Shown here: positions 6,201-63,970 of the stretch, one piece after another
Layout of the letters: each line of letters starts with the position of its first letter
Position numbering within the stretch: the stretch's first letter is position 1
Source of the DNA: a virus
DNA length: 64,000 nt
IMG/VR virus record: IMGVR_UViG_3300034103_002265
Direction: 5' to 3' (one strand)
Made by a program: the position numbers and the translations under genes
The notes under the pieces: model-generated
Database searches by the model: none
What the model saw: only the letters and a program-made list of their open reading frames with translations
What the model was told of the DNA's origin: nothing

Positions 6201-6225
6201 ATAAGAATATTGCTGTAAAGACCGC

Positions 6226-6465: not shown

Positions 6466-6469
6466 CCAA

Positions 6470-6496
6470 AAGGCTACTTCGGTAGCCTTTTTTTTG
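6470..6496 (+). terminator. Rho-independent terminator
   Basis: aggctac-ttcg-gtagcct followed by T8. Confidence 0.8.
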
Positions 6497-6510
6497 TTAT
6501 AATAACATAG

Positions 6511-7494
6511 ATGAAAAATTTTTTCGAATTAGAACATATTTTTGTTGTGTTTCCCCCCGGGTCATCAGGGAATTTTATTTCTAATTTAATTAGAAATATA
6601 ATTTCTAATACCATGACTGAACAGCAGTTATCGTCTAGCGGAAATGCGCACCACGATCCTGGTACTGGAAATCCGTTAGGATGCAACATTTTATATCTTT
6701 ACCCTAATCATCAGTTGATAACAGATAATGACAAAATAAATTTTTATAAAAAAGATATCGAAACTAAATTTTTAAATGATTTAACTGTTAAAGTTTCTTG
6801 GACACATGATTTTTCTAATATAAGTTTTTACAAAAAGTTATTTCCAAATTGTAAAATTTTAGTAATTACCACCGAAACTCGAAAAGAAAAAATAACTGCA
6901 ATGATATTGCAAGAATTGAAAAATACTTTAGATACTCACGGGTATGTGTTTGTTGATGATGAAGAATTTCGTAAACCTTTAATTATTCGAACTGCTCGAA
7001 TGTTAAAAGAAATGTCAAATATAAAAGATATGGATTATTTGATAAAATTGCTAGACAATGGAAGATCACCTAAAAATTTTCCATTGTTTGTTTATCTTAC
7101 AATATATAGCATGATGACTTATTATGAGTTTACTAATGAAAAATACGATTTATTAGATTATTGCATAAATCCTGCTGGAACAATAACAGGAATTTGGGAT
7201 CAACAAATAATAAAAGTAATAGGACCTAAATATCAAGATTGTGTTACTGATGACTGTATCAAACTACACTTCTCTGATATTGTCACCAAAAATTCAAAAA
7301 GTTTAATAGACAGACTAGAAATACTATTAGGTATAATTTTAACAGAAAAGCAAAAAATATATGTTTCAAATTCATTAAAACAATATATTGAAAAACAAAA
7401 TCAAGAAGTTTTATCAAATCCTAAAAAATATTTCGAAACAATAAAATCACAGGCTCTTTTACGCATCCAAGAATTAAAAAACGAAACAGATTGA
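6511..7494 (+). CDS. Hypothetical protein (sulfotransferase-like fold is only a guess)
   Basis: 327 aa ORF with N-terminal FVVFPPGSSGNFISN. Confidence 0.35.
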   Translation: MKNFFELEHIFVVFPPGSSGNFISNLIRNIISNTMTEQQLSSSGNAHHDPGTGNPLGCNILYLYPNHQLITDNDKINFYKKDIETKFLNDLTVKVSWTHDFSNISFYKKLFPNCKILVITTETRKEKITAMILQELKNTLDTHGYVFVDDEEFRKPLIIRTARMLKEMSNIKDMDYLIKLLDNGRSPKNFPLFVYLTIYSMMTYYEFTNEKYDLLDYCINPAGTITGIWDQQIIKVIGPKYQDCVTDDCIKLHFSDIVTKNSKSLIDRLEILLGIILTEKQKIYVSNSLKQYIEKQNQEVLSNPKKYFETIKSQALLRIQELKNETD

Positions 7495-17243: not shown

Positions 17244-18647
17244 ATGAACGCATTTGTTGAAGCAGTTGAAAATGTTCAACTGGAAACTCGTACCGCAAAT
17301 GGTATGAAGTCTTTTGATTCGTCAAAGTCTGCCCTTGTTGACCTGTTCTTCTCTATCGGTGCAAGCCGTGGTAAGAACCTGAACGTACCGTTTACCAAGG
17401 CTCTCAAGCAGGACGAAACTCTGGCACTACGTCTGTTGATGTGGGCTCGTGACGTTCGTGGCGGAGCCGGTGAACGTCAAATCGTTCGCGACATTCTGTT
17501 GCATTTGGAAAAGAACTATCCAGAAGCACTGGATCGTGTGTTCGCACATATTCCAGAATTTGGTCGTTGGGACGACATGTTGGTCTTTAAGACCAAGCGT
17601 TTTAAGAATCGTGCATACACTATGATCGGTGACGCACTTCGTGCTCGTAACGGTCTGTGTGCCAAGTGGATGCCTCGTCAAGGCTCTATCGCAGTCGAAC
17701 TGCGTAACTTTTTCGGTATGAGCCCAAAGTTCTATCGTAAGAGTCTTGTGTCCTTGACCAAGGTTGTCGAACAAAACATGTGCGCTAACGATTGGACTGG
17801 TATCAACTACAGCCACGTTCCTAGCCTGGCTGCTAGCCGTTACCAAAAGGCTTTTGGCAAGCATGACCCTACAGGGTATGGTGCTTACAAGGCCGCTCTG
17901 GTCAAGGGTGATCCTAGTGTTAAGGTAAATGCAGCCGCAGTTTACCCATATGACGTTATCAAGAGCCGCCGTTTTGGTGGTGCCGATGAAGTCATCCAAG
18001 CACAATGGGATGCGCTGCCTAACTACTGCGGTGACGAACTGGTTCTGCCAGTCTGTGACGTTTCGGGCTCTATGAGTTCGCCAGTAGGTGGTAACGCTAA
18101 CTTGACCTGTATGGATGTCTGTGTCTCGCTGGGCCTATACCTAGCAGACAAGAACAAGGGTCCATTCAAGGATATGTTCCTAACTTTCTCTGAAAAGAGC
18201 AAGTTGCATATCCTTAAGGGCAATCTGCTTGACAAGTTGAACCAACTTGAAAGAGCAGAATGGGGCATGAGCACTAACCTGCACTCGGCATTTGAGGCTG
18301 TCCTCAAGTATGCCAAGGAATGGAAGGTCCCTGAAAAGCACATGCCAAAGTATCTGCTGATCATGAGTGACATGGAATTCAACCACTGCACCAAGTTCGA
18401 TGACTCTGCTATGCAGATGATCGAACGTAAGTATAAGGAAGCAGGATACAATGTTCCTAACATTGTATTTTGGAACCTAAATGCTCGTAGTGGCAACGTT
18501 CCGGTCAAGCATGACAAGCGTGGTGTGGCATTGGTCAGTGGGTTCAGCCCAAGCATCATGACTTCAATCCTAGGTGCGAAGTCTATGGATCCAACATCTG
18601 TGATGTTGGAAACCCTAAACAGCCCACGCTACAGCGTGATCGCTTAA
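17244..18647 (+). CDS. vWA (MIDAS) domain protein, DUF2828/TROVE-like, possibly Ro60-like
   Basis: DVSGSMSS (DxSxS) MIDAS motif; N-terminal ...TANGMKSF...LFFSIG...ARDVRGGAGER; 467 aa. Confidence 0.5.
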   Translation: MNAFVEAVENVQLETRTANGMKSFDSSKSALVDLFFSIGASRGKNLNVPFTKALKQDETLALRLLMWARDVRGGAGERQIVRDILLHLEKNYPEALDRVFAHIPEFGRWDDMLVFKTKRFKNRAYTMIGDALRARNGLCAKWMPRQGSIAVELRNFFGMSPKFYRKSLVSLTKVVEQNMCANDWTGINYSHVPSLAASRYQKAFGKHDPTGYGAYKAALVKGDPSVKVNAAAVYPYDVIKSRRFGGADEVIQAQWDALPNYCGDELVLPVCDVSGSMSSPVGGNANLTCMDVCVSLGLYLADKNKGPFKDMFLTFSEKSKLHILKGNLLDKLNQLERAEWGMSTNLHSAFEAVLKYAKEWKVPEKHMPKYLLIMSDMEFNHCTKFDDSAMQMIERKYKEAGYNVPNIVFWNLNARSGNVPVKHDKRGVALVSGFSPSIMTSILGAKSMDPTSVMLETLNSPRYSVIA

Positions 18648-40718: not shown

Positions 40719-41393
40719 ATGTTAAGAAAGATAAAATTATCTATTCTTGCTAGCATGTTGTTTACAGGTATTGCATTTGCTGATAACTCAGTTTATATAC
40801 AGCAATCTGGAAATAGCAATACTGTTACAATTACACAAGTTGGTAGTACCAATAGAGTAGGTGCAAGTGGAATTGGAAATCAAAGCATTATTAACGGATC
40901 TAACAATAATTTGTCTGTTACTCAAACAGGAGCAGGCAATATGTTAGATTATGATGTTGTTGGTAATGGAAACACAGTTACAAAAACCGTAACTGGAGAT
41001 ACTAATCAAATCACTTTCACCTGCGGCGACGGGACAACTGGTTGTACCAATGTAACTAGCACAATGTCCTTGCAAGGAAATAATAATACAATTACAAGTA
41101 CTTTGAAAGGAAATAGTATTAATAATACATTGAATATTACAGGTGATAACAATTCAGTAACACAATCTATACTTACTAGTCTAAGTACAAGCCAAATTAC
41201 TATATTAGGTGATAGTAATCTTTTTACATCTAGTATGTCAGGTGCTGGTGCAGGTCTAGGTCATAGTTTAGTTGCTGCTGTTACTGGAACAAGCAATAAT
41301 CATTCTGTGACACAAAGTGGAACTGTTAATACCAGTGTTACTATAACAACCACAGGTAATAGCAATACTGTAACAATTAATACTGGCAATTAA
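40719..41393 (+). CDS. Curlin-repeat secreted protein (CsgA/CsgB-like amyloid subunit candidate)
   Basis: Signal peptide, then imperfect repeats of the type SGNSNTVTITQVGSTN / GSNNNLSVTQTGAGN (S-x5-Q-x-G-x-x-N). Confidence 0.6.
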   Translation: MLRKIKLSILASMLFTGIAFADNSVYIQQSGNSNTVTITQVGSTNRVGASGIGNQSIINGSNNNLSVTQTGAGNMLDYDVVGNGNTVTKTVTGDTNQITFTCGDGTTGCTNVTSTMSLQGNNNTITSTLKGNSINNTLNITGDNNSVTQSILTSLSTSQITILGDSNLFTSSMSGAGAGLGHSLVAAVTGTSNNHSVTQSGTVNTSVTITTTGNSNTVTINTGN

Positions 41394-42481
41394 TGAAATT
41401 TATTTGTTTATTATTTTTCTTTTTGTTTTCAACAAACGTATTTGCAATCGGTAAAATTACCGAAGTGCAAGGATCTGCTGTTGAAATAAAAAGAGGAAAA
41501 AACACAATTAAAGGGTCAACGGGCACAACTATCGAATCAAACGATGTTGTGTCCGTTGGATCTGCTAGTAAAATTACTATTACATTTGAAGATAGTTCAA
41601 CTGCAAAAATTTCTGAAAATAGTAAATTAATAATCGACGACTTCGTTTATGATCCCAATGGAAGAAGTAAAAGCAGTATGCGTGTTGGATTAGGAACTGT
41701 TCGAATGGCTAGTGGTGGCATCGCTAAACAAGATTCTAAAAATGTAAACATAAGAACACCTACTGCGGCAATTGCAGTTCGTGGAACAGATTTTGCAATG
41801 ACTGTAGATGAACTTGGTCGCAGTACCGTTGTACTATTGCCAACTTGCAAAAATGATCAAGATGCTCAACGAGTAGAACTTCCTGGAAATTGCACCTGTG
41901 GAAAAATTGATGTAGCGACATCTGCTGGAGTAGTTAGTATGGAAAGTCCGTTTTATGCAACGCATGTTTCTGCTGCTCAAGAAACTCCAACAATTCCGGT
42001 AAGAGTCGATCCGACAATCATGAATGTTAGCGGAGAAGGCAGTTTAAATAAACCGCATCAAGTTGCCAAAGTTGTAGCGGAACATCAAGAAAAGAAAGAA
42101 TCACACAAAGATCGAAGTAAAGCCAGTGCTGATGAACAAAAGGCTGCTAAAGATAGTGGTAAAGAAGTTGATAAGAAAAAAGCAGAATCAGAGAATGATG
42201 CTATAAAAAAGGCATCGGCTGGGGAGTTAAGTGAAATTAAAGTTGCTACAGCAGAAGAAACAAAAATAAATCCTTGTTGGCCTTTTACTAGTTGCGGAAC
42301 TGAAAAAGGATTCAATTGGTATGAACATATTGATCCTTTACGGGGCAACACAATACATGTCAGTACTCTTGAAACAAACGACAACACTACCTACAACATC
42401 AGCGTTAATAATGTTGATATCAGTCAGAAGATAGTAGGCAGTGGAACTAATCACGTTACTATACGACAATGGAACAGATAA
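41393..42481 (+). CDS. Secreted hypothetical protein
   Basis: Signal peptide MKFICLLFFFLFSTNVFA; 362 aa. Confidence 0.45.
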   Translation: MKFICLLFFFLFSTNVFAIGKITEVQGSAVEIKRGKNTIKGSTGTTIESNDVVSVGSASKITITFEDSSTAKISENSKLIIDDFVYDPNGRSKSSMRVGLGTVRMASGGIAKQDSKNVNIRTPTAAIAVRGTDFAMTVDELGRSTVVLLPTCKNDQDAQRVELPGNCTCGKIDVATSAGVVSMESPFYATHVSAAQETPTIPVRVDPTIMNVSGEGSLNKPHQVAKVVAEHQEKKESHKDRSKASADEQKAAKDSGKEVDKKKAESENDAIKKASAGELSEIKVATAEETKINPCWPFTSCGTEKGFNWYEHIDPLRGNTIHVSTLETNDNTTYNISVNNVDISQKIVGSGTNHVTIRQWNR

Positions 42482-44385
42482 TGTTTGGTGCTAGATTAAA
42501 ATATTGGTCTTACCTTTTTGTAGCAGTATTTTTATTACTTTTGAGCAAATTAACATATGCTCAAACAATTAGCAATGGATTAAATTACACTACATATCTG
42601 CCCACATCTGGCGGGTGGACTAGTCCCAACAGAGACTTATTAACACCTTTGACTTCTGGAACAGTATTAAATTTAGATTATAATTGGAACTATGTTTTAG
42701 ACAGCGGAAGAAATGATGGAGTTGTAGTTAAGTTTACAGGTTACTTTAAAGCAGACGCAGCAGGAACATACACATTTGGTATTACAGGTGACGATGGTAT
42801 TGAACTAATAATAAAAAATCAAACAGTTATAAGTTATTGGGCAGATCAAGGACCTACTCTAAGATCTGGATCAATTACTTTAGCAGCAGGAGAAGTAGTT
42901 CCTGTAACAATTTGGTTTTATGAAAACGGCGGGGGCGCTACATTAAGATGGTATCAGCAGATCAACGGAAGTTGGGTAATTGTTCCAACAACTAGTTTAG
43001 CAACTAGCGAAGCCTATTGGGGACCGCAGACTATTTCTACTGCTAATTCTAATATGGGATTCGAAACTAGTACACTACAAAATTGGACTGCTAATAGAGC
43101 AGGAACACAAAATAGTTCTAATTGGGGTTCGAGCGGAGTCGGTGCTAGTGTAGTAACAGGTATAACAAATTTTACACCAGGTGATAATAAAACATGGACT
43201 GTAACACCTTATGGCACATATATGGCTTCTTTGCAGCCCGGTCCTGGCGATGTATCATTTGATCAAATGACCATTGATCTTGGACTAACTTCTGGTGAAG
43301 TAACTGAAATTAAAAATGTTATTGCTGCTCAAGCAGCAGCAGCAGGAGGAGACCCTAATCCTACAGATGCTACATGGTTACGTAGAACAGTATCTTTAAA
43401 ATCGGGTGTTACATATACTATTGCATGGCAATATATTTCAACAGATTACGTTCCATTTAATGATGGAAGTATTATGGTACTGAGACATGCTACTGATGCT
43501 ACAAAGATACCAACACTAAACAATGAACAAAAACGATATGCTTTGTTAGGTTTTACAAATCCCAATACCGGCAATTACAGCGTAGGTAGTTATGGCGCAA
43601 CAGGATGGCAAGTTGCTGTGTTTACTGTGCCCGTTGATGGTGATTATGTTATAGGGTTTAGTTCTTTTAATTTAGGCGATACTGCACTAAGTCCTATTTT
43701 GTTAATAGATGAAATACAAGGAACAACATTACTGAACGGACAACCATTTGCTCCGGTACCACCAAATCCAGGATCTTCTAGTCCCAGTGCAGGACCAGTG
43801 TTATGTTGTGGTGGAAGTGCTAATCAATTTACAGCAAACTCTGCATTCAGTAATAGGGTAACTGGATTTATTGCGAATAATAATGTAGACAATCGAGTTA
43901 TTATTCAACAAATTGGAAATAATAACAATATTACAGTTACACAAAGTGGTAGAAAAAATTACAGTGAAATAGAAATAACAGGGTCTAATAATTCAGTAAC
44001 TACAAATCAAACTAGCAATTCTAATACTTTAGCAAACTACAGTGAATTATATATTTCTGGTAGCGGAAATACAGTTAGTTTAACGCAGTCTAGTACAGGC
44101 GGGAATAAAGGAATTTATGTAACGACAGCAGATTCAACAAATAATATAACTATAAATCAAAGTGGTTCAGGAAATCATTATTCTGAATTAAATTTACTTG
44201 GCGGAAACAAGACTGTTAATATAAATCAAAGCGGAAGTGTAGGGCATATGGCCAAGGTAGAACTAAACGGCGGGTCTACTTCTATTAATGTTACGCAATC
44301 TGGATCTACGCAACAATTTTATTCTATTACTCATAACTGTGCTCAAATAAGTTGTTCTGCCATTACAGTTACACAGGGCCAATAA
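42469..44385 (+). CDS. Secreted PA14-domain protein with C-terminal curlin-like repeats
   Basis: PA14-like GYFKADAAGTYTFGITGDDGIELIIKNQ. C-terminal repeats VTQSGRKNYSEIEITGSNNSVTTNQTSNSN...NINQSGSVGH. Confidence 0.55.
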   Translation: MEQIMFGARLKYWSYLFVAVFLLLLSKLTYAQTISNGLNYTTYLPTSGGWTSPNRDLLTPLTSGTVLNLDYNWNYVLDSGRNDGVVVKFTGYFKADAAGTYTFGITGDDGIELIIKNQTVISYWADQGPTLRSGSITLAAGEVVPVTIWFYENGGGATLRWYQQINGSWVIVPTTSLATSEAYWGPQTISTANSNMGFETSTLQNWTANRAGTQNSSNWGSSGVGASVVTGITNFTPGDNKTWTVTPYGTYMASLQPGPGDVSFDQMTIDLGLTSGEVTEIKNVIAAQAAAAGGDPNPTDATWLRRTVSLKSGVTYTIAWQYISTDYVPFNDGSIMVLRHATDATKIPTLNNEQKRYALLGFTNPNTGNYSVGSYGATGWQVAVFTVPVDGDYVIGFSSFNLGDTALSPILLIDEIQGTTLLNGQPFAPVPPNPGSSSPSAGPVLCCGGSANQFTANSAFSNRVTGFIANNNVDNRVIIQQIGNNNNITVTQSGRKNYSEIEITGSNNSVTTNQTSNSNTLANYSELYISGSGNTVSLTQSSTGGNKGIYVTTADSTNNITINQSGSGNHYSELNLLGGNKTVNINQSGSVGHMAKVELNGGSTSINVTQSGSTQQFYSITHNCAQISCSAITVTQGQ

Positions 44386-44409
44386 ATATAATTTTAAGGA
44401 GAAGCCACT

Positions 44410-44736
44410 ATGAAAAAAATAGCAGTGGCGTTCCTATTCTGCTTGACCAGCACCATAGCCAACGCCCAGGGTACTAGTGAATTTAGACAAGTTAATAAGC
44501 CAGTTGTATGTGGTCCTATAGAAACTATACTTAAACATCTTACAGGTCCCGATGTTCGAGAAATGCCCTTTTGGACAGGAAAAGACGATAGTAGGATAGG
44601 AGAATACATGGTTCTTATTAACCCCAAAGATGATACATTTACAATCATACAATTTTCAGATAAAATAGGATGTATCGTAGGTATGGGAAACAAGAACAAT
44701 TTTTTTAAAATTCAGCAAAATTTACAAAGATTGTAA
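44410..44736 (+). CDS. Small secreted protein
   Basis: Signal peptide ...TIANAQG; 108 aa. Confidence 0.4.
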   Translation: MKKIAVAFLFCLTSTIANAQGTSEFRQVNKPVVCGPIETILKHLTGPDVREMPFWTGKDDSRIGEYMVLINPKDDTFTIIQFSDKIGCIVGMGNKNNFFKIQQNLQRL

Positions 44737-44797
44737 CAGTACTGTAATCTTTCTCTGCTAATATAATTGTAAATAATTTTACAACAAGGAGAAAGAT

Positions 44798-45811
44798 ATG
44801 AAAAAGTTATTTGCATTTATTGCAGCATTTGCTCTAAGTACATTTGCATTTGCATCTGATATCACTGGAGCAGGCGCTACATTTCCCTACCCAATTTACG
44901 CTAAATGGGCAGAAGCCTATAAGAAAGCCACCGGAGTCGGTCTTAACTATCAAAGTATTGGTAGTTCAGGAGGTATCCGACAAATCAATGCTAAGACTGT
45001 GACATTTGGTGCAACAGATGCTCCAGTTAAAGGTGAAGAACTTGATCGACGCGGACAAGTTCAATTTCCTGCTATCATCGGCGGTACTGTACCGGTAGTT
45101 AACCTAGATGGATTTAAGCCAGGCGAATTGCGTATTACTGGTACGATCCTTGCAGAAGTTTTCATGGGCAACATTACAAAATGGAACGATCCAAAATTAG
45201 TTGCAATTAATCCAGGAAAGCGTTTGCCAGATCAAAATATCACTGTAATACATCGTGCGGATGGTAGTGGTACTACGTTTAATTGGACTGATTATCTAAC
45301 AGTGGTTAGTCCAGAATGGGCTCAGAGAGTGGGTCGAGGCGCTGCTGTGAAGTGGCCGGCTGCTAGTTCAGTAGGCGGTAAAGGCAATGAAGGAGTTGCT
45401 GCTAATGTAAACAGAATTAAAGGTTCTATTGGTTATGTTGAGTATGCCTACGTTAAGAAGAATAATATGAATTTCATGTTGTTACAAAACAAATCTGGTA
45501 AGTTTGTTGCTCCGGATGATGCAGCATTTGCTGCGGCTGCAGACGGCGCTGACTGGTTTTCAGTTCCGGGTATGGGTTTGAGTATTGTAGATCAAGCCAA
45601 TCCTAATGCTTGGCCAGTTAGTTCAGCAAGTTTTATTATTATGTACAAAGATCCTGTAAATAAAGAACAAAGTCGTGAAGTCTTAAAGTTTTTTGATTGG
45701 GCATTTAAAAACGGTAAACAGGCAGCATTAGAATTAGATTATGTTCCATTACCAGACAGTCTGACACAACAGATTCGACAGCGTGTTTGGACTCAAATAA
45801 ATAACAAGTAA
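44798..45811 (+). CDS. pstS: Phosphate ABC transporter substrate-binding protein PstS
   Basis: GAGATFPYPIYAKWAEAYKKATGVGLNYQSIGSSGGIRQI. Confidence 0.85.
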   Translation: MKKLFAFIAAFALSTFAFASDITGAGATFPYPIYAKWAEAYKKATGVGLNYQSIGSSGGIRQINAKTVTFGATDAPVKGEELDRRGQVQFPAIIGGTVPVVNLDGFKPGELRITGTILAEVFMGNITKWNDPKLVAINPGKRLPDQNITVIHRADGSGTTFNWTDYLTVVSPEWAQRVGRGAAVKWPAASSVGGKGNEGVAANVNRIKGSIGYVEYAYVKKNNMNFMLLQNKSGKFVAPDDAAFAAAADGADWFSVPGMGLSIVDQANPNAWPVSSASFIIMYKDPVNKEQSREVLKFFDWAFKNGKQAALELDYVPLPDSLTQQIRQRVWTQINNK

Positions 45812-45825
45812 ATCGCCTACAAAGA

Positions 45826-45880
45826 TAGAGTAGGGCTGGAATTCGTAACCAGCAGTAGGGCCGCAAGGCTCTATTTTTTT
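45826..45880 (+). terminator. Long hairpin terminator
   Basis: atagag...ctctat followed by T7. Confidence 0.6.
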
Positions 45881-45892
45881 GGTAAATAAAAG

Positions 45893-46654
45893 ATGCGAGC
45901 AACAGAGTTTATTACAGAAAAAAAACACAAAAAGCAAAAGACAAAACATGCTGCTTACGGACCGGGTCCATATGGATGGTATGGTTTTGATTCAGGATAT
46001 AGCGGTGATGGGGGCGGTATTGAAGAAAGTCAACACGATCAATCAGCAGAAAAATACCGTGAACATTTAATTAAGACATTGCCACAGATAATGAAGTTTT
46101 TTGACCAAGCCGTTAAAGGCTGGAAGCCTTCTGAGGAACAAATGATGGCTGCTATCGAAACTGCTTATACTGTAATGAAGCACACCGGAGATATAAAACA
46201 AGCAGGCCGTGCAATGATGGATGAATTAAACACTTTGCATAGAATGAGTCAGGGTCAGCAAGGTGTGGCGGAAAGTGGAAATAAAAAAGAAGCAGTTCGT
46301 CGAATACAAAAAATGTTAAACAAGAAATTTAATGCTAATTTAGATATTGATGGTATTCTAGGGCCTCTTACACTGCAATCGATAAACAAATTTATGCCTA
46401 GTGCAAAGGTGGGGCTTGCTGACGAGCCGAATAAAACTACATCTGTTCAGGGTAAAACTATTAAAAAGAAAGATATAGAGGAAAACTTTGCTGATGGTCG
46501 AAATCCTCAAGACAAAGGAGATGCAAAGCGACACGGAATTAATACCAAAGCATCTGTAAGTAGCCTACGTAAAACTGCTAAACAAGGTGGTCGTAAAGGA
46601 CAGTTAGCACATTGGTTAGCAAATATGAAAGCAGGAAGAGCCAAGGCTAAATGA
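45893..46654 (+). CDS. Protein with a peptidoglycan-binding domain
   Basis: LDIDGILGPLTLQSINKFM (PG_binding_1-like) and a Gly-rich N-terminus. Confidence 0.45.
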   Translation: MRATEFITEKKHKKQKTKHAAYGPGPYGWYGFDSGYSGDGGGIEESQHDQSAEKYREHLIKTLPQIMKFFDQAVKGWKPSEEQMMAAIETAYTVMKHTGDIKQAGRAMMDELNTLHRMSQGQQGVAESGNKKEAVRRIQKMLNKKFNANLDIDGILGPLTLQSINKFMPSAKVGLADEPNKTTSVQGKTIKKKDIEENFADGRNPQDKGDAKRHGINTKASVSSLRKTAKQGGRKGQLAHWLANMKAGRAKAK

Positions 46655-48702
46655 AAAAAATATTGTTAAACCCGTGGACAGCACTTATTACTTTGATGCT
46701 AGTTGTGGGTGTTAGATTTTTAGATCCTAGTTTTATAGAATCAGTTAGATTGCGTTATTTTGATCAATTGATTATAAGTCAACCCGAAAAGCCTGTTCCT
46801 GTACACACTGTTAATGTCGATGAAGCAGCATTAGAAAAATATGGGCAATGGCCTTTTCCTCGAAACCTATATGCAGAAATTATTAAAGAATTATACAATA
46901 GAGATGCTGGTCTTGTTGTTTTTAATGTATTAATGCCAGAAAAAGATAGATTTAATCAAGATAAAACTTTAGCAGAAACAATTAAAGAATATCCTGTAGT
47001 ATTACCTGCTCTAGGAAGCACCAAAGGAAAAAATACTGATCATGGCAGTTCAGTTCAAATTGTAGGACAAGATCCTAGTGGAAAAATTGTAGAGTATCCT
47101 GGATTAATTAATAGTGTAGATCAAATTTCTAAACTAGCACTGGGAATCGGAATTGCTAATACATTTCCAGAAATAGATGGTGTAGTGCGTAGGATGCCGT
47201 TAATCATTATTGCAGGTGGTAATGTTCATGCTGCATTAAGTTTAGAAACATTGAGAGCAGCAGGAGATGATAAAATTCAAGTAAAGATAAATGACATCGG
47301 TGTAGAAGCAGTTAGAATTCCCAGTGTTGGAAGATTTAATACAGATGACTTATCTAGAATATGGATCGATTGGGCAGCAAAACCTCAAGAACATAGTCTT
47401 GCAAATTTACCTAGAAGTTTTGATAAAGGCATAGTTGTAGTGGGTTTGAGTGCAGCAGGTTTAGTAAATCCGATAGCAACTGCTCGAGGAGAAGTTTGGC
47501 CTCAGTATTTGCAGGCCAGTGTAATGGGAACTATGCTATCTGAATCGAGTATTCAGCGTCCAGGATATGCAGATACATATGAAATAATTGCTATCATAGT
47601 AGCAGGCATAATTTTAATATTTTTAATGAGGTGGACATATGTGGGCATTGCGGCAACTGTGGTTACGATTGGTGGGGTTATTGCTGGCAGCATTTATTCT
47701 TACAGTAACTTTTCAATACTATACGACTCAACTGCCTTTGCAGTTGGCGTTGGATTGGTCGCTTTGCACGCCTACATGGTCAAGTTCGTTTCAGAATTCT
47801 TACAAAAACAACAGATCAGAAAACAGTTCCAAAGTTACCTTAGCCCCGACCTCGTAGCCAAATTGATCAAAGATCCTAGCCTATTAAAACTCGGAGGTGA
47901 AGAAAAAGAACTAAGTATCATGTTTACTGATGTTCGAGGATTTACCAGCATCAGTGAACATTATGGTAAAGATGTGCAAGGTTTAACAAAAATTATGAAT
48001 CGCTATATGACAGCGATGACTCGTAAGATTTTAGAAAATGATGGAACCCTAGACAAGTACATAGGTGATGCACAAATGGCATTCTGGAACGCTCCTTTAG
48101 ATGAAACACAACATTGTAAGGATGCAGTAAAAGCAGCATTGGAAATGTTAGATGACTTGGATAAATTTAATGATGAAATTACCAAAGAAGGTATTCCGGC
48201 TTTTGGTATGGGTCTTGGTATTAATACTGGCATTGTTGTTGTTGGTAACATGGGCAGTGAGCAACGTTTTGATTATACTTGTCTTGGCGATGCTGTCAAT
48301 CTTGCTTCCCGACTTGAAGGACAGTCTAAAAACTACGGTGTCAAAATTGTTCTGGGTCCCGTAACTGCTGAACGCTTAGGCGATGATTACTTTACACTTG
48401 AGTTAGATTGTATAGCCGTTAAGGGAAAAAAAGAAGGTGTAACAATTTATACTGTATTCCGAAATCCTAATGCAGGTTCTATACCAGAATGGATAATGGC
48501 TAAAGAGAAACATAATGAAATGTTAAAACTCTATAGACAACAAAAATGGGACAAAGCAGTTGGATTAGTTAACAAACTTCAGGGAGAATTCGATGGACAA
48601 ATGGAACACTATTATGAGTTATGGATCGAACGCATTGAAGAAATGCGTAGTGCTAACCTTCCTGGTAATTGGGACGGCGTATTCAGAGCCCAAAGCAAGT
48701 GA
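46651..48702 (+). CDS. CHASE2 sensor / class III adenylate (nucleotidyl) cyclase
   Basis: N-terminal TM plus CHASE2-like periplasmic region. Cyclase core FTDVRGFTSISE...YIGDAQMAFWNAP...GINTGIVVVGNMGS...GDAVNLASRLEG. Confidence 0.8.
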   Translation: MKKILLNPWTALITLMLVVGVRFLDPSFIESVRLRYFDQLIISQPEKPVPVHTVNVDEAALEKYGQWPFPRNLYAEIIKELYNRDAGLVVFNVLMPEKDRFNQDKTLAETIKEYPVVLPALGSTKGKNTDHGSSVQIVGQDPSGKIVEYPGLINSVDQISKLALGIGIANTFPEIDGVVRRMPLIIIAGGNVHAALSLETLRAAGDDKIQVKINDIGVEAVRIPSVGRFNTDDLSRIWIDWAAKPQEHSLANLPRSFDKGIVVVGLSAAGLVNPIATARGEVWPQYLQASVMGTMLSESSIQRPGYADTYEIIAIIVAGIILIFLMRWTYVGIAATVVTIGGVIAGSIYSYSNFSILYDSTAFAVGVGLVALHAYMVKFVSEFLQKQQIRKQFQSYLSPDLVAKLIKDPSLLKLGGEEKELSIMFTDVRGFTSISEHYGKDVQGLTKIMNRYMTAMTRKILENDGTLDKYIGDAQMAFWNAPLDETQHCKDAVKAALEMLDDLDKFNDEITKEGIPAFGMGLGINTGIVVVGNMGSEQRFDYTCLGDAVNLASRLEGQSKNYGVKIVLGPVTAERLGDDYFTLELDCIAVKGKKEGVTIYTVFRNPNAGSIPEWIMAKEKHNEMLKLYRQQKWDKAVGLVNKLQGEFDGQMEHYYELWIERIEEMRSANLPGNWDGVFRAQSK

Positions 48703-59806: not shown

Positions 59807-60142
59807 TTACCGAAGGAAAATGAACAGACAGACAATTGAACAATTTTTGAATACGAGTAGAGTCTACCTTGGACAACCACTGTAGATTGCTCAAAAGTGT
59901 GATAGGGAACGCGACCCTGCTGGGCACTTAAAACATCTGGCTATTAATGAGGGCGGAGACGGGGATGAGAAGACTGTGGCGATAACACAGTTGGTAAAAA
60001 CCGTCGTAGTAAAGCATACTAACAACCACTGCCTTCGAAAGCAGAACGGGACTCATAGAGATCAGTGTGCTTTACTACACACATTCTCCTTTCCGCCCCT
60101 GACGCGGTCAAAAAGCATAGCGGAGAGTGTGTTACAAAATTC

Positions 60143-60229
60143 GGAGCCCTTTCCCGCTTGCGGTCTGTAAAATCGTAGCCATAATAAGGTGGGTGGTGGC
60201 AAGAGGTTCGATTCCTTGGGGCTCCACCA
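60143..60229 (+). pseudogene. Degenerate tRNA-like gene (Tyr-like anticodon arm; D arm missing; 25-nt variable region)
   Basis: Acceptor ggagccc/gggctcc, T arm agagg-ttcgatt-ccttg, discriminator A, CCA, internal arm gcggt-cTGTAaa-atcgt. Only 8 nt lie between the acceptor and anticodon arms. Confidence 0.35.
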
Positions 60230-60234
60230 AATTT

Positions 60235-60309
60235 GCTCTGTAAGCATTGCTGGCGATGCAGGCGCCTTGTAAGCGTCAGAACCGGGTTCGATTCCTGGAC
60301 AGAGCACCA
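60235..60309 (+). tRNA. tRNA-Thr(UGU)
   Basis: Hand-folded cloverleaf with anticodon loop ctTGTaa; CCA encoded. Confidence 0.8.
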
Positions 60310-60316
60310 GATATTT

Positions 60317-60391
60317 GCTCCGTTCGTCTATTGGTTAGGACGCTGGCCTTTCACGCCGGAAAGACGAGTTCGATTCTCGTACGGAGTACCA
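60317..60391 (+). tRNA. tRNA-Glu(UUC)
   Basis: Anticodon loop ctTTCac; D arm TTCGTCTATTGGTTAGGAC, Glu-like. Confidence 0.8.
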
Positions 60392-60397
60392 AACAAT

Positions 60398-60473
60398 GCC
60401 AACTTAGCTGATGTGGTCATAGCGGCGGTCTGAAGAACCGTGGAAGTAGGTTCGATCCCTGCAGTTGGCACCA
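60398..60473 (+). tRNA. tRNA-Phe(GAA)
   Basis: Anticodon loop ctGAAga. Confidence 0.8.
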
Positions 60474-60479
60474 AACATA

Positions 60480-60557
60480 GGTTTCATAGTTCAGCCTGGC
60501 CTAGAATAACTGCCTGTCACGCAGTAGACACGGGTTCGAATCCCGTTGGAACCGCCA
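60480..60557 (+). tRNA. tRNA-Asp(GUC)
   Basis: CTGCCTGTCACGCAG anticodon arm. Confidence 0.8.
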
Positions 60558-60559
60558 AG

Positions 60560-60626
60560 TTTTAGGATGCTTCCAGCAAATTAAATAACTTTTTATTTGA
60601 AAAAAGCAAAACAGCATCCTGTTATT
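60560..60626 (+). repeat. Conserved-terminus element, member 1
   Basis: 5' TTTAGGATGCTTCCAGCAAA ... 3' AGCATCCTGTTAT, with an 8-bp terminal inverted repeat. Confidence 0.5.
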
Positions 60627-60633
60627 TTTCATT

Positions 60634-60711
60634 CTGGGTATATTGTCAACCAGGTAGACGGCCGGGCTTGGAACTCGGAGGCTGTAGGTTCGAATCCTAC
60701 TACCCAGACCA
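60634..60711 (+). tRNA. tRNA-Pro(UGG)
   Basis: Anticodon loop ctTGGaa. Confidence 0.8.
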
Positions 60712-60720
60712 GATCATTGT

Positions 60721-60811
60721 GGAAGGTCAAATCGATTGGTGACGAAAACTGTCTTGAAAACAGCCGAGTGTTAATAACGCCTTGAGGGTTCGACTCCCTT
60801 GCCTTCCGCCA
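60721..60811 (+). tRNA. tRNA-Ser(UGA), class II
   Basis: GTCTTGAAAACAG anticodon arm; 91 nt with a long variable arm. Confidence 0.75.
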
Positions 60812-60819
60812 CAAAAATG

Positions 60820-60848
60820 TTGACAAGTTCCATTGATGGTAGCATAAT
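60820..60848 (+). promoter_or_regulatory. sigma70-like promoter
   Basis: TTGACA, 17 nt spacer, CATAAT. The predicted start site coincides with 60855. Confidence 0.55.
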
Positions 60849-60854
60849 TACTAT

Positions 60855-60968
60855 GCGACCGTGAGTGGAAACATGGCAGACCTCCAAAAATACATTGTAT
60901 GTATTGAGGGAAGGCACAAAGACCTAGTCACCGTAGCCTTGTAGGTTCGAATCCTACCGGTCGTACCA
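60855..60968 (+). ncRNA. 114-nt tRNA-like RNA (good acceptor and T arm, irregular interior)
   Basis: Acceptor gcgaccg/cggtcgt, T arm gtagg-ttcgaat-cctac, discriminator A, CCA. Interior holds hairpin aatac-attgtat-gtatt and direct repeats agacc. Confidence 0.4.
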
Positions 60969-60974
60969 GATTAT

Positions 60975-61067
60975 CGAGAGTGGGCAGGATGGTAATGCAG
61001 CGGATTGCTAATCCGTAGGTTTAGTGATGAACTAGGCCACAGGGTTCGACTCCCTGACTCTCGGCCA
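60975..61067 (+). tRNA. tRNA-Ser(GCU), class II
   Basis: Anticodon loop ttGCTaa; 93 nt. Confidence 0.75.
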
Positions 61068-61075
61068 AAGAATTT

Positions 61076-61151
61076 GCGGGTATAGTACAGTTGGTAGTAC
61101 ATCACTTTGCCAAAGTGAAGGTCACGAGTTCGAATCTCGTTACCCGCTCCA
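61076..61151 (+). tRNA. tRNA-Gly(GCC)
   Basis: Anticodon loop ttGCCaa. Confidence 0.8.
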
Positions 61152-61157
61152 AACAAT

Positions 61158-61231
61158 ATCTCCGTGGTGTAATGGCAGCATAGCAGTCTCCAAAACTGTT
61201 TGTGGGAGTTCGAGTCTCTCCGGGGATGCCA
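61158..61231 (+). tRNA. tRNA-Trp(CCA)
   Basis: Anticodon loop ctCCAaa. Confidence 0.8.
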
Positions 61232-61234
61232 AAG

Positions 61235-61308
61235 TTTTTAGGATCGATTCAGCAAACTAAAAAACTCAATCTTTCAAATTGACTAAAAAGACGATCCTGT
61301 TGTATAAT
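61235..61308 (+). repeat. Conserved-terminus element, member 2
   Basis: 5' TTTTAGGATCGATTCAGCAAA ... 3' CGATCCTGTTGTATAAT. Confidence 0.5.
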
Positions 61309-61382
61309 GGCTATGTAGCTCAATGGCAGAGCAATCGGCTGATAACCGATAGATGATGGTTCGATTCCATACTTAGCTACCA
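61309..61382 (+). tRNA. tRNA-Ile(GAU)
   Basis: Anticodon loop ctGATaa; one U.U mismatch in the acceptor stem. Confidence 0.75.
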
Positions 61383-61390
61383 ATTTCAAT

Positions 61391-61477
61391 TCCGCTCGTG
61401 GTGGCATGGCGAAACCCCCTGGCTGTTAACCAGAGAGCACGAAAGTGAGCGAGGTTCGATCCCTCGGAGCGGAGCCA
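61391..61477 (+). tRNA. tRNA-Asn(GUU) with an unusual 15-nt variable arm
   Basis: U1, G73 and loop ctGTTaa match Asn. The V region gagcac-gaaa-gtgag forms a GNRA-capped hairpin. Confidence 0.6.
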
Positions 61478-61722
61478 TATTGAAGCACATTCTACCCATC
61501 TGTGGCACGGAACGGAGTCGTCACAGAATGGCGAAAAGACCCGTTTGAGTGTGTTTCAATATGGCTAGACGATAGTTTTGAGTCCCACACAACCTAGCGT
61601 AAGGACTCACTTATGCGACTACAACAGAGTGGTTGAACCGTGGTAGTTAAACTTGACTATCGAGACAATCCATCGAGGCCTCCTAGCACCCAGGGAGGAT
61701 AGGTGGGCTGCCAGACTATATT

Positions 61723-61797
61723 GGGCTGTTAGTGATAATGGGAGCACGGGGGCCTTGCAAGTCCTAGGTAGGGGTTCGATTCCCCTACGGTCCACCA
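61723..61797 (+). tRNA. tRNA-Ala(UGC)
   Basis: Anticodon loop ctTGCaa and a G3.U70 pair. Confidence 0.85.
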
Positions 61798-61803
61798 AAC
61801 AAC

Positions 61804-61877
61804 ATCGCGTTAGACTTCTGGGAGGTCCCTAGGCTTTCAACCTAGTCAGGCGGGTTCGATCCCCGTACGCGATACCA
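61804..61877 (+). tRNA. tRNA-Glu(UUC), second copy
   Basis: Anticodon loop ctTTCaa. Confidence 0.75.
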
Positions 61878-61924
61878 TCCATGCTACCTCTGACTCCTAG
61901 AGTCGAGATGTGTGGCCTTATATT

Positions 61925-61999
61925 GCCGTTGTAGCTCTCTGGGAGGGCACTGCACTGTCGATGCATGTCAGGAGGGTTCGATTCCCTTCAGCGGCGCCA
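61925..61999 (+). tRNA. tRNA-Asp(GUC)-like, second copy
   Basis: Anticodon loop ctGTCga with a 27-43 mismatch. Confidence 0.65.
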
Positions 62000-62000
62000 A

Positions 62001-62066
62001 ATTTTAGGATGCATACAGCAAACAAAAACATACTGCAAATATGGTAAAAAACGCATCCTGTTATAT
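62001..62066 (+). repeat. Conserved-terminus element, member 3
   Basis: 5' TTTTAGGATGCATACAGCAAA ... 3' GCATCCTGTTATATTTG. Confidence 0.5.
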
Positions 62067-62068
62067 TT

Positions 62069-62143
62069 GCCTGGTTAGCTCAGAGGTAGAGCAGCGTCTT
62101 GATAAGGCGTTGGCCGCTGGTTCGATCCCAGCACTAGGCACCA
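62069..62143 (+). tRNA. tRNA-Ile(GAU), second copy
   Basis: Anticodon loop ttGATaa. Confidence 0.75.
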
Positions 62144-62151
62144 AATACTGT

Positions 62152-62225
62152 TGGGGGTTAGTTAAATGGTATAACAACGGACTTTGACTCCGTGATTATA
62201 GGTTCGATTCCTATACCCTCTGCCA
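62152..62225 (+). tRNA. tRNA-Gln(UUG)
   Basis: Starts with U1 (TGGGGGT); anticodon loop ctTTGac. Confidence 0.75.
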
Positions 62226-62236
62226 AATATTTCAAT

Positions 62237-62310
62237 GGTGTCTTTAGTGTAGTGGTAGCAAATCTGACTGTGAATCAGAAGGCGAGGGTTCGATTCCCCA
62301 AGGCACCCCA
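62237..62310 (+). tRNA. tRNA-His(GUG); the 3' end and T stem are imperfect
   Basis: Anticodon arm tctga-ctGTGaa-tcaga, C73, only 3 GC pairs in the T stem, and CCA does not fall in register. Confidence 0.6.
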
Positions 62311-62320
62311 AACAATTTAT

Positions 62321-62398
62321 GCCCGTGTAGCGCAATAGGTAGAGGCGACAGACTTAAAATCTGTAAAGGTGCGAGTTCGAATCTCGCCACGGGTACCA
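62321..62398 (+). tRNA. tRNA-Leu(UAA) with a short (6-nt) variable region
   Basis: Anticodon arm acaga-ctTAAaa-tctgt, A73, 78 nt. Confidence 0.7.
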
Positions 62399-62404
62399 AA
62401 CATT

Positions 62405-62528
62405 GCCGCTGTAGCTCAATTGGATAGAGCGCTAAAGAAGGTGATCCTGTCTTTAGGATACATACAGCAAATTTTTCAATCCACTGATAATGGAGAGGTT
62501 TCTGGTTCGAATCCAGACGGCGGCACCA
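62405..62528 (+). pseudogene. tRNA-Ile(GAU)-like gene carrying a 47-nt insertion between the D and anticodon arms
   Basis: A canonical 5' part (gccgctg-ta-gctc-aattggata-gagc) and 3' part (tcca-cTGATAa-tgga, T arm, cggcggc-A-CCA) are separated by ...GATCCTGTCTTTAGGATACATACAGCAAA..., which carries the element-family termini. Confidence 0.5.
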
Positions 62529-62534
62529 ATTAAT

Positions 62535-62609
62535 ACCACCTTCGTATAATGGACAATACTCTTGGCTACGAACTAAGAAATGTGGGTTCGATTCCTGCAG
62601 GTGGTGCCA
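62535..62609 (+). tRNA. tRNA-Arg(ACG)
   Basis: Anticodon loop ctACGaa. Confidence 0.8.
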
Positions 62610-62626
62610 ATTTTTAGGAGCACTGT

Positions 62627-62758
62627 TATGGCACATAACAAAAAAGGCAATCTTACTCGCAGTCCTCAATGGTGGAAGCATCTAAAGGATTGGAAACGTG
62701 TTTGGCATAAACAAGAACGCCAAGCGTACAAAAAAGAGATTGACAAGGCAACGAGTTG
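62627..62758 (+). CDS. Small basic protein (43 aa) within the tRNA array
   Basis: RBS aggag, then MAHNKKGNLTRSPQWWKHLKDWKRVWHKQERQAYKKEIDKATS. Confidence 0.35.
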
Positions 62759-62875
62759 ATCATAAAATATTGAAACTGAAACAAAGGAGAATGACATGAA
62801 ACGAGGTAAACTCTAGTGTCATCCTAGTACTCCGTATGGTCTAGGGTGGCACGTAAAATCAAAAAGTACGAACAC

Positions 62876-62950
62876 CCTTGCTAAACTTTGCTGGCGAAGT
62901 ACCCGGCTCTTACCCGGGAAAACAGAGTTCGATTCTCTGAGCAAGGACCA
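62876..62950 (+). tRNA. tRNA-Lys(CUU)
   Basis: Anticodon loop ctCTTac. Confidence 0.75.
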
Positions 62951-62953
62951 ATA

Positions 62954-63029
62954 CGGAGTATAGTGAAACGGTTATCACAGCAGACTTTTAATCTGCCAAT
63001 TCTGGGTTCGAATCCCAGTGCTCCGACCA
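62954..63029 (+). tRNA. tRNA-Lys(UUU)
   Basis: Anticodon loop ctTTTaa. Confidence 0.8.
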
Positions 63030-63114
63030 TATAAAAGCACATTTACAGATCCGCCCGATAGTAAGGGAGATAGCGACTAGCGTTGAAGGACTGTTTAAAA
63101 GTGTGCTTCTATAT

Positions 63115-63192
63115 GGTGATGTAGCATAGAAGGTCTGTGCGCTTCCCTCATAAGGAAGAATGGGGTCAGTTCGATTCTGACCATCACCACCA
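63115..63192 (+). tRNA. tRNA-Met(CAU) (elongator, or Ile-lysidine type)
   Basis: Anticodon loop ctCATaa; 6-nt variable region. Confidence 0.7.
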
Positions 63193-63200
63193 AACTTAAT

Positions 63201-63277
63201 GCCCTCGTAGCGCAATTGGTAGAGGCAATGGCCTTAGAAGTCATACAGTGAGAGTTCGAATCTCTCCGAGGGTACCA
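63201..63277 (+). tRNA. tRNA-Leu(UAG) with a short variable region
   Basis: Anticodon arm atggc-ctTAGaa-gtcat, A73, 77 nt. Confidence 0.7.
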
Positions 63278-63288
63278 AGAAATTAAAT

Positions 63289-63365
63289 GCCCAAGTAGCG
63301 CAATAGGTAGAGGCAACTGGCTCAAAATCAGTTTAGTGTGGGTTCGAATCCCTCCTTGGGTACCA
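63289..63365 (+). tRNA. tRNA-Leu(CAA) with a short variable region
   Basis: Anticodon arm actgg-ctCAAaa-tcagt, A73, 77 nt. Confidence 0.7.
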
Positions 63366-63370
63366 AATAT

Positions 63371-63446
63371 AGGTCTTTAGATTAGCGGCTAAATCGTCAC
63401 GTTGACATCGTGAAGACCGCTGGTTCGATTCCAGCAAGACCTACCA
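63371..63446 (+). tRNA. tRNA-Val(GAC)
   Basis: Anticodon loop ttGACat; A1-U72 pair. Confidence 0.8.
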
Positions 63447-63447
63447 G

Positions 63448-63562
63448 TTTAGGGATGACTACAGCAATCTTAAAATACTCTTACCATTCTCAAGAGGCCG
63501 GCCCGCTGGGGGTAGTGTCATGGGTTCGAGTCCCGGTTTTAGACACAGCATCCCGTTTTATT
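63448..63562 (+). repeat. Conserved-terminus element, member 5, enclosing a tRNA-like T arm
   Basis: 5' TTTAGGGATGACTACAGCAATCTTAAAA ... internal GC-rich tgggttcgagtccc T-arm-like hairpin ... 3' GCATCCCGTTTTAT. Confidence 0.5.
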
Positions 63563-63814
63563 ATTCAATGTTCGAGCTAACGCAGGAAACTGAGGAAGTT
63601 CGGGACTTGTGGCAAGTGCGTGTGGGAGATGGTACTGAATTTGAGATGAGTAAATGTCGCGGTAATCAATCCGTACAGCCATCGTCTTACCACCGTGATA
63701 TAACAAGCAACACAAACAGAACTAGGTAACACTTGCACTATTAGTTCGGGTTGTGGCGAAGATGAATGTTAGCATAGAACAGAATCCCGGCTACGGAACA
63801 TTGAATTTTTTTAT

Positions 63815-63893
63815 GCTCCTGTGGCGCAATCTGGGTAGACGCTGCGGGCTGAGAACTCGTATGTTGGAGGTTCGAATCCTCTCAGGAGCACCA
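63815..63893 (+). tRNA. tRNA-Leu(GAG) with a short variable region
   Basis: Anticodon loop ctGAGaa, A73, 79 nt. Confidence 0.65.
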
Positions 63894-63896
63894 ATT

Positions 63897-63970
63897 GCCC
63901 TATTAGTTAAATGGTATAACAGGGCCCTCGTAATGCTCAGTTAGCAGTTCGATTCTGTTATAGGGCACCA
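63897..63970 (+). tRNA. tRNA-Thr(CGU)
   Basis: Anticodon loop ctCGTaa. Confidence 0.7.

Follow-up and report, generated by a model that had tools for sequence, protein, structure and literature searches.

A dense tRNA array in the uncultured phage represented by IMG/VR record IMGVR_UViG_3300034103_002265 encodes four leucine tRNAs (tRNA-Leu), with the anticodons UAA, UAG, CAA and GAG, that lack the long variable arm of ordinary bacterial class II tRNA-Leu. The whole stretch of DNA analysed, here termed the window, is 64,000 nucleotides (nt) long, and all coordinates are given as positions within it. The four genes belong to a widespread lineage of arm-less tRNA-Leu that phages and some plasmids carry in their tRNA arrays, a lineage that is almost confined to mobile elements. 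They are probably working leucine tRNAs derived from a class II tRNA-Leu that lost its long arm, which the leucyl-tRNA synthetase (LeuRS) of the host would charge and which would be used in translation.

Four tRNA-Leu genes with short variable loops

ARAGORN places 28 tRNA and transfer-messenger RNA (tmRNA) genes in the window, 26 of which lie within a dense array on the + strand (60235-63970). All four of the Leu genes in the window are short. These genes, together with the two tRNA-Ser genes that served as comparators, are as follows (the subfamilies are described below):

62321-62398, + strand: tRNA-Leu(UAA), 78 nt with CCA, type I-like, subfamily A (ARAGORN); A9, variable loop AAAGGU, G12.G23, G1.U72, A73, encoded CCA; Rfam tRNA model 57.7 bits
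63201-63277, + strand: tRNA-Leu(UAG), 77 nt with CCA, type I-like, subfamily A (ARAGORN); variable loop ACAGU, G1.U72, A73, encoded CCA; Rfam tRNA model 54.7 bits
63289-63365, + strand: tRNA-Leu(CAA), 77 nt with CCA, type I-like, subfamily A (ARAGORN); variable loop UUAGU, G1.U72, A73, encoded CCA; Rfam tRNA model 53.0 bits
63815-63893, + strand: tRNA-Leu(GAG), 79 nt with CCA, type I-like, subfamily B (ARAGORN); G9, canonical G12-C23, D loop 2 nt longer, variable loop AUGUU, G1-C72, A73, CCA; Rfam tRNA model 54.7 bits
60975-61067, + strand: tRNA-Ser(GCU), 93 nt, class II, long arm kept (ARAGORN); Rfam tRNA model 45.9 bits
60721-60811, + strand: tRNA-Ser(UGA), 91 nt, class II, long arm kept (ARAGORN at a relaxed threshold)

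Without the CCA the four Leu tRNAs are 74-76 nt long. Each is spanned in full by the Rfam model RF00005 (model positions 1-71 of 71) with scores of 53.0-57.7 bits, the gathering score being 29, and these scores match those of the other tRNAs in the array. An arm-by-arm parse gives variable loops of 5-6 nt in all four, short of the stem-loop of at least 10 nt that characterises class II tRNAs, while the anticodon loops are intact, with 7 nt, U33 and a purine at position 37. The original prediction, made from the sequence of the window, had described the Leu anticodons, the coordinates, lengths of 77-79 nt, variable regions of 5-6 nt and A73, all of which are confirmed by ARAGORN, Rfam and two covariance models (R1 and R2, described below). 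It had also allowed for a long arm that had been overlooked, but none was placed in any of the four Leu tRNAs by ARAGORN, Rfam, R1, R2 or minimum free energy (MFE) folding. The tRNA-Ser genes of the array do keep their long arms, as had been noted, at 93 and 91 nt. The tRNA-Ser(UGA) gene is skipped by ARAGORN under default settings, matches the Rfam tRNA-Sec model at 44.4 bits, which is under the gathering score of that model, and is 85% identical to an unannotated segment of Escherichia phage phiWec179.

Leucine-like character of the tRNA bodies

As ARAGORN names tRNAs by the anticodon alone, the bodies of the four tRNAs were tested separately. All four combine a D stem of 3 base pairs (bp) and an 11-13-nt D loop, NAAUNGGUAGA, which includes A14, A15 and G18G19, with A15/U48, a UUCGAAU T loop, A73 and a variable loop that ends in U48. 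The type II references were the tRNALeu genes of E. coli K-12 (85-87 nt) and phage T5 (85 nt). R1, a covariance model built from 12 type II tRNA-Leu only (E. coli and phage), gives the four window genes the four highest scores of the array (UAA, 60.0 bits; UAG, 56.6; CAA, 53.9; GAG, 50.5) despite the penalty incurred for the missing arm, followed by a tRNA-Lys at 47.2 bits. A sequence-only hidden Markov model (HMM), derived from the R1 alignment after masking of the anticodon and deletion of the arm columns, was run on 486 unique phage tRNAs. Ranks 1-41 in this masked HMM are all occupied by Leu tRNAs, the best non-Leu tRNA scores 24.1 bits, and the window UAA (31.5 bits), CAA (30.1 bits) and UAG (29.5 bits) genes outscore every non-Leu tRNA in the set. 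The concern that isotype models might assign the window genes to another amino acid is thus answered by R1 for all four genes and by the masked HMM for three of them.

At the level of sequence, the nucleotides of the E. coli Leu determinants U8-A14, A15-U48, G18G19, A20a, U54-A58 and G19-C56 (PMC9976931) are all present, and the LeuRS recognition elements which the original prediction had singled out for inspection are likewise in place (A73, A15-U48, G18G19, A20a and U54-A58). The D arm of the GAG tRNA, GUGGCGCAAUCUGGGUAGACGC, is near that of E. coli leuX and leuW, GUGGCGAAAU(C/U)GGUAGACGC, and differs from it at position 13 and by two extra nt in the D loop. The UAA, UAG and CAA genes carry GUAGCGCAAUNGGUAGAGGC, with a 3-bp stem and 11-nt loop as in leuX and leuW, but with A9 and a G12.G23 mismatch; the G1.U72 and A73 ends of these three genes are also present in E. 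coli leuZ and leuU. Taken together, the four genes depart from bacterial tRNALeu on the class II criterion and agree with it on every other testable Leu criterion. The D-loop motif AAT.GGTAGA was considered as a Leu marker and dropped. It is shared by class I tRNAs for Gly, Phe, Met, Pro, Ile and Gln that have 4-bp D stems and, since it is not Leu-specific, it was replaced by the model-based tests (R1, the masked HMM and R2).

Selection and subfamilies of the arm-less tRNA-Leu family

R2, a covariance model of the phage type I tRNA-Leu family from whose construction the window sequences were left out, scores the window UAG, CAA, UAA and GAG genes at 90.7, 85.8, 84.2 and 65.8 bits, respectively, with the next tRNA at 52.1 bits. 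Across 34 distinct family members, 94.3% of the helix cells pair and compensatory changes are found at 19/20 pairs. None of 500 shuffles reaches the observed pairing, while controls with slid partners give 31-44%. Positions U8, A14, A15, G18, G19, U48, U54, U55, C56, A58 and A73 are invariant in the 34-sequence alignment. These tRNAs are under purifying selection.

Two subfamilies are distinguished. Subfamily A, which includes the window UAA, UAG and CAA genes, is characterised by A9, a variable loop of the form NNAGU and, often, G.G at positions 12-23, while subfamily B, which includes the window GAG gene, has G9, a variable loop of the form NNGUU or NUUCU and a Watson-Crick 12-23 pair. The original prediction had relied on four independent genes sharing the trait. 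The missing arm is indeed a property of the set and no artefact, but the UAA, UAG and CAA genes are paralogues that share a D-arm motif at 19 of 20 nt, with the GAG gene representing the second subfamily, and the four are therefore not fully independent.

The purine-purine mismatch G12.G23 in the D stem is seen in 23/34 aligned members, of the subfamily A type, and always together with A9; in the window it falls within 62330-62346, 63210-63226 and 63298-63314. Family members with C12-G23 or G12-C23 exist too. The combination of G12.G23 and A9 may have arisen after the loss of the arm to compensate for it in the tertiary core.

Distribution in phages, plasmids and bacteria

The 20-nt D-arm motif GTAGCGCAATNGGTAGAGGC, taken from the UAA, UAG and CAA genes, was searched in IMG/VR and matches 39 contigs, always inside a tRNA of 75-80 nt with a Leu anticodon (CAA, UAG, UAA, AAG, GAG or CAG). 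At the motif-bearing IMG/VR loci, 70 Leu genes are short and nine long, whereas 28 Ser genes are long and one short and all 13 Tyr genes are long. Counted over the motif-selected set, 57 of the 65 unique Leu sequences are short, while 36/38 Ser and 14/14 Tyr sequences are long. Type I and type II Leu genes occur together in some arrays (L013, L027, L029 and L038). Among 185,579 bacterial and archaeal species genomes (one for each species), the motif has three matches: one is a phage-like array carried by a 13-kb contig of a metagenome-assembled genome, and the other two are not tRNAs.

Viral contigs were also sampled with an arm-agnostic pattern consisting of the D loop and a UAA anticodon loop. 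The tRNA-Leu(UAA) gene is long at 105 of these loci and short at four (4/109). When all Leu genes in the same loci are considered, 120 are long and 20 short, with the Ser (33/33) and Tyr (16/16) genes all long. Set against these counts, the shortness of all four window Leu genes goes beyond chance. Arm-less tRNA-Leu is a minority among phage tRNA-Leu genes, and the 105 long as against four short loci, along with the type II tRNALeu of T5, show that the earlier statement that phage tRNA-Leu is normally class II was right.

Arm-less tRNA-Leu genes are also present in cultured phages and in plasmids:

Erwinia phage phiEa21-4: 77-78 nt
E. coli Felixounavirus vB_EcoM_LMP34: 77-79 nt
Bacillus phage P59: 77 nt
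Vibrio phage KVP40: tRNA-Leu-3, 78 nt
Cronobacter phage CR8: 77-78 nt
Lactobacillus phage Iacchus: 74-76 nt
P. putida phage NoPa: 77-79 nt
Synechococcus phage BUCT-ZZ01: 78 nt, the best match to the window, with 80.8% identity over the full length
Actinobacterial plasmids with tRNA arrays: B. breve megaplasmid pMP7017 and a Curtobacterium plasmid

The Ser and Tyr genes in those cultured phages are 83-95 nt long. Database records label the arm-less genes plain tRNA-Leu, with the missing arm unremarked, in phages sequenced from 2003 onward, since KVP40. The cultured-phage and plasmid genes share with those of the window the D-arm architecture, a variable loop of 5-6 nt (commonly NNAGU), A73 and, usually, an encoded CCA, and they are likewise sited in tRNA arrays that retain long genes for Ser and Tyr. 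The window differs from the cultured phages (Felixounavirus, Kolesnikvirus and others) in that it has no near-identical relative among them and carries four isoacceptors, covering six codons and drawn from both subfamilies. A BLAST search of one window Leu tRNA against 5,426 E. coli genomes returned nothing at E <= 0.01, which, with a short query and a huge database, is weak evidence; the tRNALeu genes of E. coli, the host of Felix O1-like relatives, are all type II. The arm-less trait is hence not peculiar to the window genome, which lowers the novelty of the original prediction and leaves its correctness unaffected.

Proposed origin and charging of the arm-less tRNAs

The arm-less genes would have arisen from an ordinary bacterial class II tRNA-Leu through replacement of the long variable stem-loop by a loop of 5-6 nt ending in U48. 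Individual tRNAs would be processed out of an array transcript in which the CCA is already encoded, and the host LeuRS would then charge them. Bacterial LeuRS, as known from E. coli and Aquifex, reads A73 and the elbow where the D and T loops meet, with A15-U48, and neither the anticodon nor the long arm, so that the arm would be dispensable for Leu identity. The E. coli enzyme needs A73, A15-U48, G18G19, A20a and the G18:U55, G19-C56 and U54:A58 contacts, while it ignores the anticodon and the long arm, and arm-less variants stay active (PMC9976931). Leu alone would have lost the arm in these arrays because the seryl-tRNA synthetase (SerRS) and the bacterial tyrosyl-tRNA synthetase use it, in keeping with the counts of long Ser and Tyr genes. 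Between them, the four anticodons suffice to read the six Leu codons, which this AT-rich phage uses in the proportions UUA 33%, UUG 19%, CUU 19%, CUA 15%, CUG 9% and CUC 5%. No phage-encoded LeuRS was found in the window, where the largest open reading frame (ORF), of 746 amino acids, is rIIA.

Several observations weigh against the four genes being working Leu tRNAs charged by the host. Under single-sequence MFE folding, one of the four genes forms a cloverleaf and the other three do not, and the z-scores lie between -1.8 and +0.2; these scores are uninformative, and the structure instead rests on the covariance models and the covariation. The G12.G23 mismatch is conserved within a D stem of just 3 bp in three of the four genes. 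The GAG gene scores 17.7 bits in the masked HMM, which lies in the zone of overlap with other isotypes, and is thus weakly Leu-specific in that model. Furthermore, E. coli LeuRS was reported to be unable to charge the S. coelicolor tRNALeu(CAA), the sole bacterial type I tRNALeu to have been tested, the charging of which required features of the leucine-specific domain of the Streptomyces LeuRS (PMC6614811). This failure means that the arm cannot be taken to be dispensable in every pairing of LeuRS and tRNA, and it is on account of the Streptomyces result that the expression and charging of the phage tRNAs are put forward here as probable.

Alternative explanations

An adaptive origin of the arm loss is conceivable, if on balance unlikely. 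The phage Leu tRNAs could by this means escape immune or toxin effectors, whether of the host or phage-encoded, that recognise the arm, and could stay chargeable while the type II tRNALeu of the host is disabled. Such counter-defence addresses why the arm was lost and is therefore compatible with the genes encoding normal Leu acceptors. Retron-Eco7 and Septu act on tRNATyr by cleaving it in the variable loop, a cut that the T5 tRNATyr escapes by virtue of a different variable loop (PMC13096335), MenT3 requires the long variable loop of tRNASer (PMC11541572), and mobile tRNA arrays are already suspected to be anti-defence units (PMC12803027). The distribution of the D-arm motif, on 39 viral contigs against one real match, itself a phage-like array, in the 185,579 species genomes, points in the same direction, and the abortive-infection toxin AbiEii appears to favour class II tRNAs. 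Infection by T-even phages is also reported to result in cleavage of the host tRNALeu1 (Yudelevich 1971). However, no effector aimed at the tRNALeu arm was found in the literature searched, and the Ser and Tyr tRNAs of the same arrays keep their arms although it is tRNATyr and tRNASer that have been documented as targets. Some arrays, moreover, contain Leu genes of both types, and no feature of the window ties the Leu tRNAs to a defence or anti-defence gene. Neutral loss of the arm is a sufficient explanation. If the adaptive origin were true, it would constitute a structural form of tRNA-based immune evasion, distinct from substitutions in the anticodon loop, and would predict a novel defence activity that acts on the tRNALeu arm.

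It is highly improbable that the genes have a non-translational nature, whether as decaying pseudogenes or as uncharged tRNA-like decoys, primers or processing signals. Degenerate tRNA-like sequences do occur in phage arrays, several of them in the window (60142-60229, 60855-60968, 61391-61477 and 62405-62528), and the MFE folding of three of the four Leu genes is weak. Decay or decoy function is nevertheless at odds with the compensatory covariation in all four helices, with the universal tertiary nucleotides and A73, which are invariant across phages of unrelated hosts, and with a set of genes in which the anticodon loops are intact, every Leu codon is covered and the bit scores are on par with those of the array.

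Least credible of all is that tRNAs with Leu anticodons are charged with another amino acid and recode Leu codons during infection. LeuRS does not read the anticodon, so that the tRNA body sets the identity, and the body departs from type II Leu in the missing arm and, in three genes, in A9 and G23. The window also has a tRNA with a CUA (amber) anticodon, through which the phage might interfere with decoding. Against recoding, the bodies keep all the Leu determinants mapped in E. coli (A73, A14, A15-U48, G18G19, the A after U20 and U54-A58) and score as Leu under anticodon masking. The determinants of other systems are not in evidence, there being neither G3.U70 nor the long arm that SerRS uses. 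The occurrence of all six Leu anticodon types on one body across phages is what would be expected for Leu and not for reassignment.

Comparison with known arm-less tRNALeu

According to a 2023 review, tRNALeu has a long arm everywhere save in animal mitochondria (PMC9976931). The literature searched contained no analysis of arm-less tRNALeu in phages, but only a paper on Streptomyces, where type I tRNALeu has been published as rare, and a one-sentence note on mycobacteria. The type I tRNALeu(CAA) of S. coelicolor has a 5-nt variable loop, ACAGC, compared with ACAGU and UUAGU in the window, the match being in loop length (Fan et al. 2019, PMC6614811). It is found alongside type II tRNALeu, and a single LeuRS charges it, but it differs from the window genes in being a chromosomal housekeeping gene for which A73 is not an identity element (PMC6614811). 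The mycobacterial tRNALeu(TAG) is similarly encoded in an accessory, mobile tRNA cluster and has a short variable loop, with a long chromosomal isoacceptor (Behra et al. 2019, PMC6582537); it is found in a bacterial genome setting and represents the same phenomenon, as described there in one sentence (PMC6582537).

Animal mitochondrial tRNALeu is also class I-like and armless, with an identity that resides mainly in A73 and A14 (PMC9976931). It has a degenerate, AT-rich and fragile body and is served by a mitochondrial LeuRS of its own, whereas the phage tRNAs keep a canonical elbow (G18G19 and UUCGAAU). The nucleotides that LeuRS requires in engineered arm-less E. coli tRNALeu, from SELEX (systematic evolution of ligands by exponential enrichment) and minimalist studies, are all conserved in the phage tRNAs (PMC9976931). 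The engineered molecules are, however, laboratory constructs, while the natural phage tRNAs have also changed at positions 9 and 23 in one subfamily.

Other elements of the array and genomic context

Long variable regions occur in the same arrays on tRNAs with anticodons other than those of Leu, Ser and Tyr. An 87-nt 'tRNA-Asn(GUU)' in the window (61391-61477, + strand) has a long insert resembling a variable arm, G73 and a weak D arm, and is unreported by the Rfam tRNA model; it has the look of a class II-like tRNA whose anticodon is not one for Leu, Ser or Tyr. An 89-nt Asn(GUU) counterpart is found on IMG/VR contig L009 (10941-11029). Several of the IMG/VR arrays with arm-less Leu genes contain, in addition, Ile(UAU), Thr(UGU), Met(CAU), Lys and Cys tRNAs of 85-95 nt with long inserts in the variable region, and the long-insert Ile(UAU) tRNAs adjoin type I Leu(CAA). 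Arms thus seem to have been gained as well as lost in phage arrays. The tRNAs with long inserts are located on the following contigs:

L006: 7853-7944
L024: 874-965
L026: 5279-5369
L030: 2862-2952
L039: 8842-8934
L015: 3740-3834
Further long-insert tRNAs: L023, L027 (Thr), L003, L033 (Met), L028 (Lys), L034 (Cys)

A repeat of the form TTTTAGGATnnnnnCAGCAAA ... nnnnnATCCTGTTAT is found between the tRNAs of the window array at 60560-60629, 61236-61305, 62002-62068 and 63448-63563, with a variant at 62440-62477. Its ends are complementary (AGGATGC/GCATCCT), with 30-80 nt between them, and the last copy encloses a T-arm-like GGGTTCGAGTCCC. Searches against Rfam gave sub-threshold matches only (Dicty_Class_I_RNA). 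The repeat might serve as a promoter/terminator cassette or a processing signal, or represent a small mobile element. Several further tRNA-like or tmRNA elements were observed in the window, the second and third of which are skipped by default ARAGORN:

62405-62528, + strand: tRNA, 45.5 bits over 121 nt in Rfam, anticodon loop CUGAUAA (Ile-GAU), split by an insert of ~47 nt that separates the D arm from the anticodon stem, a non-canonical intron position; the insert holds a copy of the inter-tRNA repeat
60142-60229, + strand: tRNA-like, good acceptor and T arms, possible Tyr (GUA) loop, long variable region, degenerate D arm
60855-60968, + strand: tRNA-like, 114 nt, large insert, good acceptor and T arms
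6194-6520, + strand: permuted tmRNA of the two-piece type, tag ANDEVFAMAA
4938-5012, + strand: lone tRNA with a CUA (amber-reading) anticodon, labelled Pyl by ARAGORN

No in-frame TAG is present in 49 long ORFs of the window, but these ORFs were delimited by stops that include TAG, and the count is no test of read-through.

The window, with a guanine plus cytosine content of 33-43%, encodes rIIA, NAMPT, a NadR-like NMN adenylyltransferase/Nudix protein, PstS and ClpX, along with numerous small ORFs. It recurs on metagenome contigs. No close cultured relative was identified; a near-identity search of cultured phages with the array gave only a 91-nt match to Ser(UGA), and the rIIA of the window is at most 39% identical to any match. 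An ORF at 17244-18647 (+ strand) carries the DUF2828 (Pfam E-value 1e-24) and DUF7788 (3e-52) domains, in a phage that abounds in tRNAs and tRNA-like RNAs, and the region 41393-48702 (+ strand) encodes proteins that are unusual for a phage, namely FecR-domain, PA14/curlin-repeat, PstS-like phosphate-binding and CHASE2-adenylate/guanylate cyclase proteins.

Significance

For the window itself, the result is mainly a correct annotation, that of four type I tRNA-Leu genes that together cover all six Leu codons, and these genes are new members of a known, under-described kind of tRNALeu. The value lies more in the picture of the family than in this single window. A covarying and evidently selected arm-less tRNA-Leu lineage that has spread through phage and plasmid arrays is broader than the Streptomyces case, with hosts that include E. 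coli, Salmonella, Erwinia, Vibrio, Pseudomonas, Bacillus, Lactobacillus, cyanobacteria and actinobacteria. Its members provide natural substrates for asking how bacterial LeuRS copes with tRNAs that have no arm, given the failure of E. coli LeuRS on the Streptomyces tRNA, and whether the loss of the arm shields phage tRNAs from defences directed at it, and both of these questions could be tested in Felix O1-like or KVP40-like phages.

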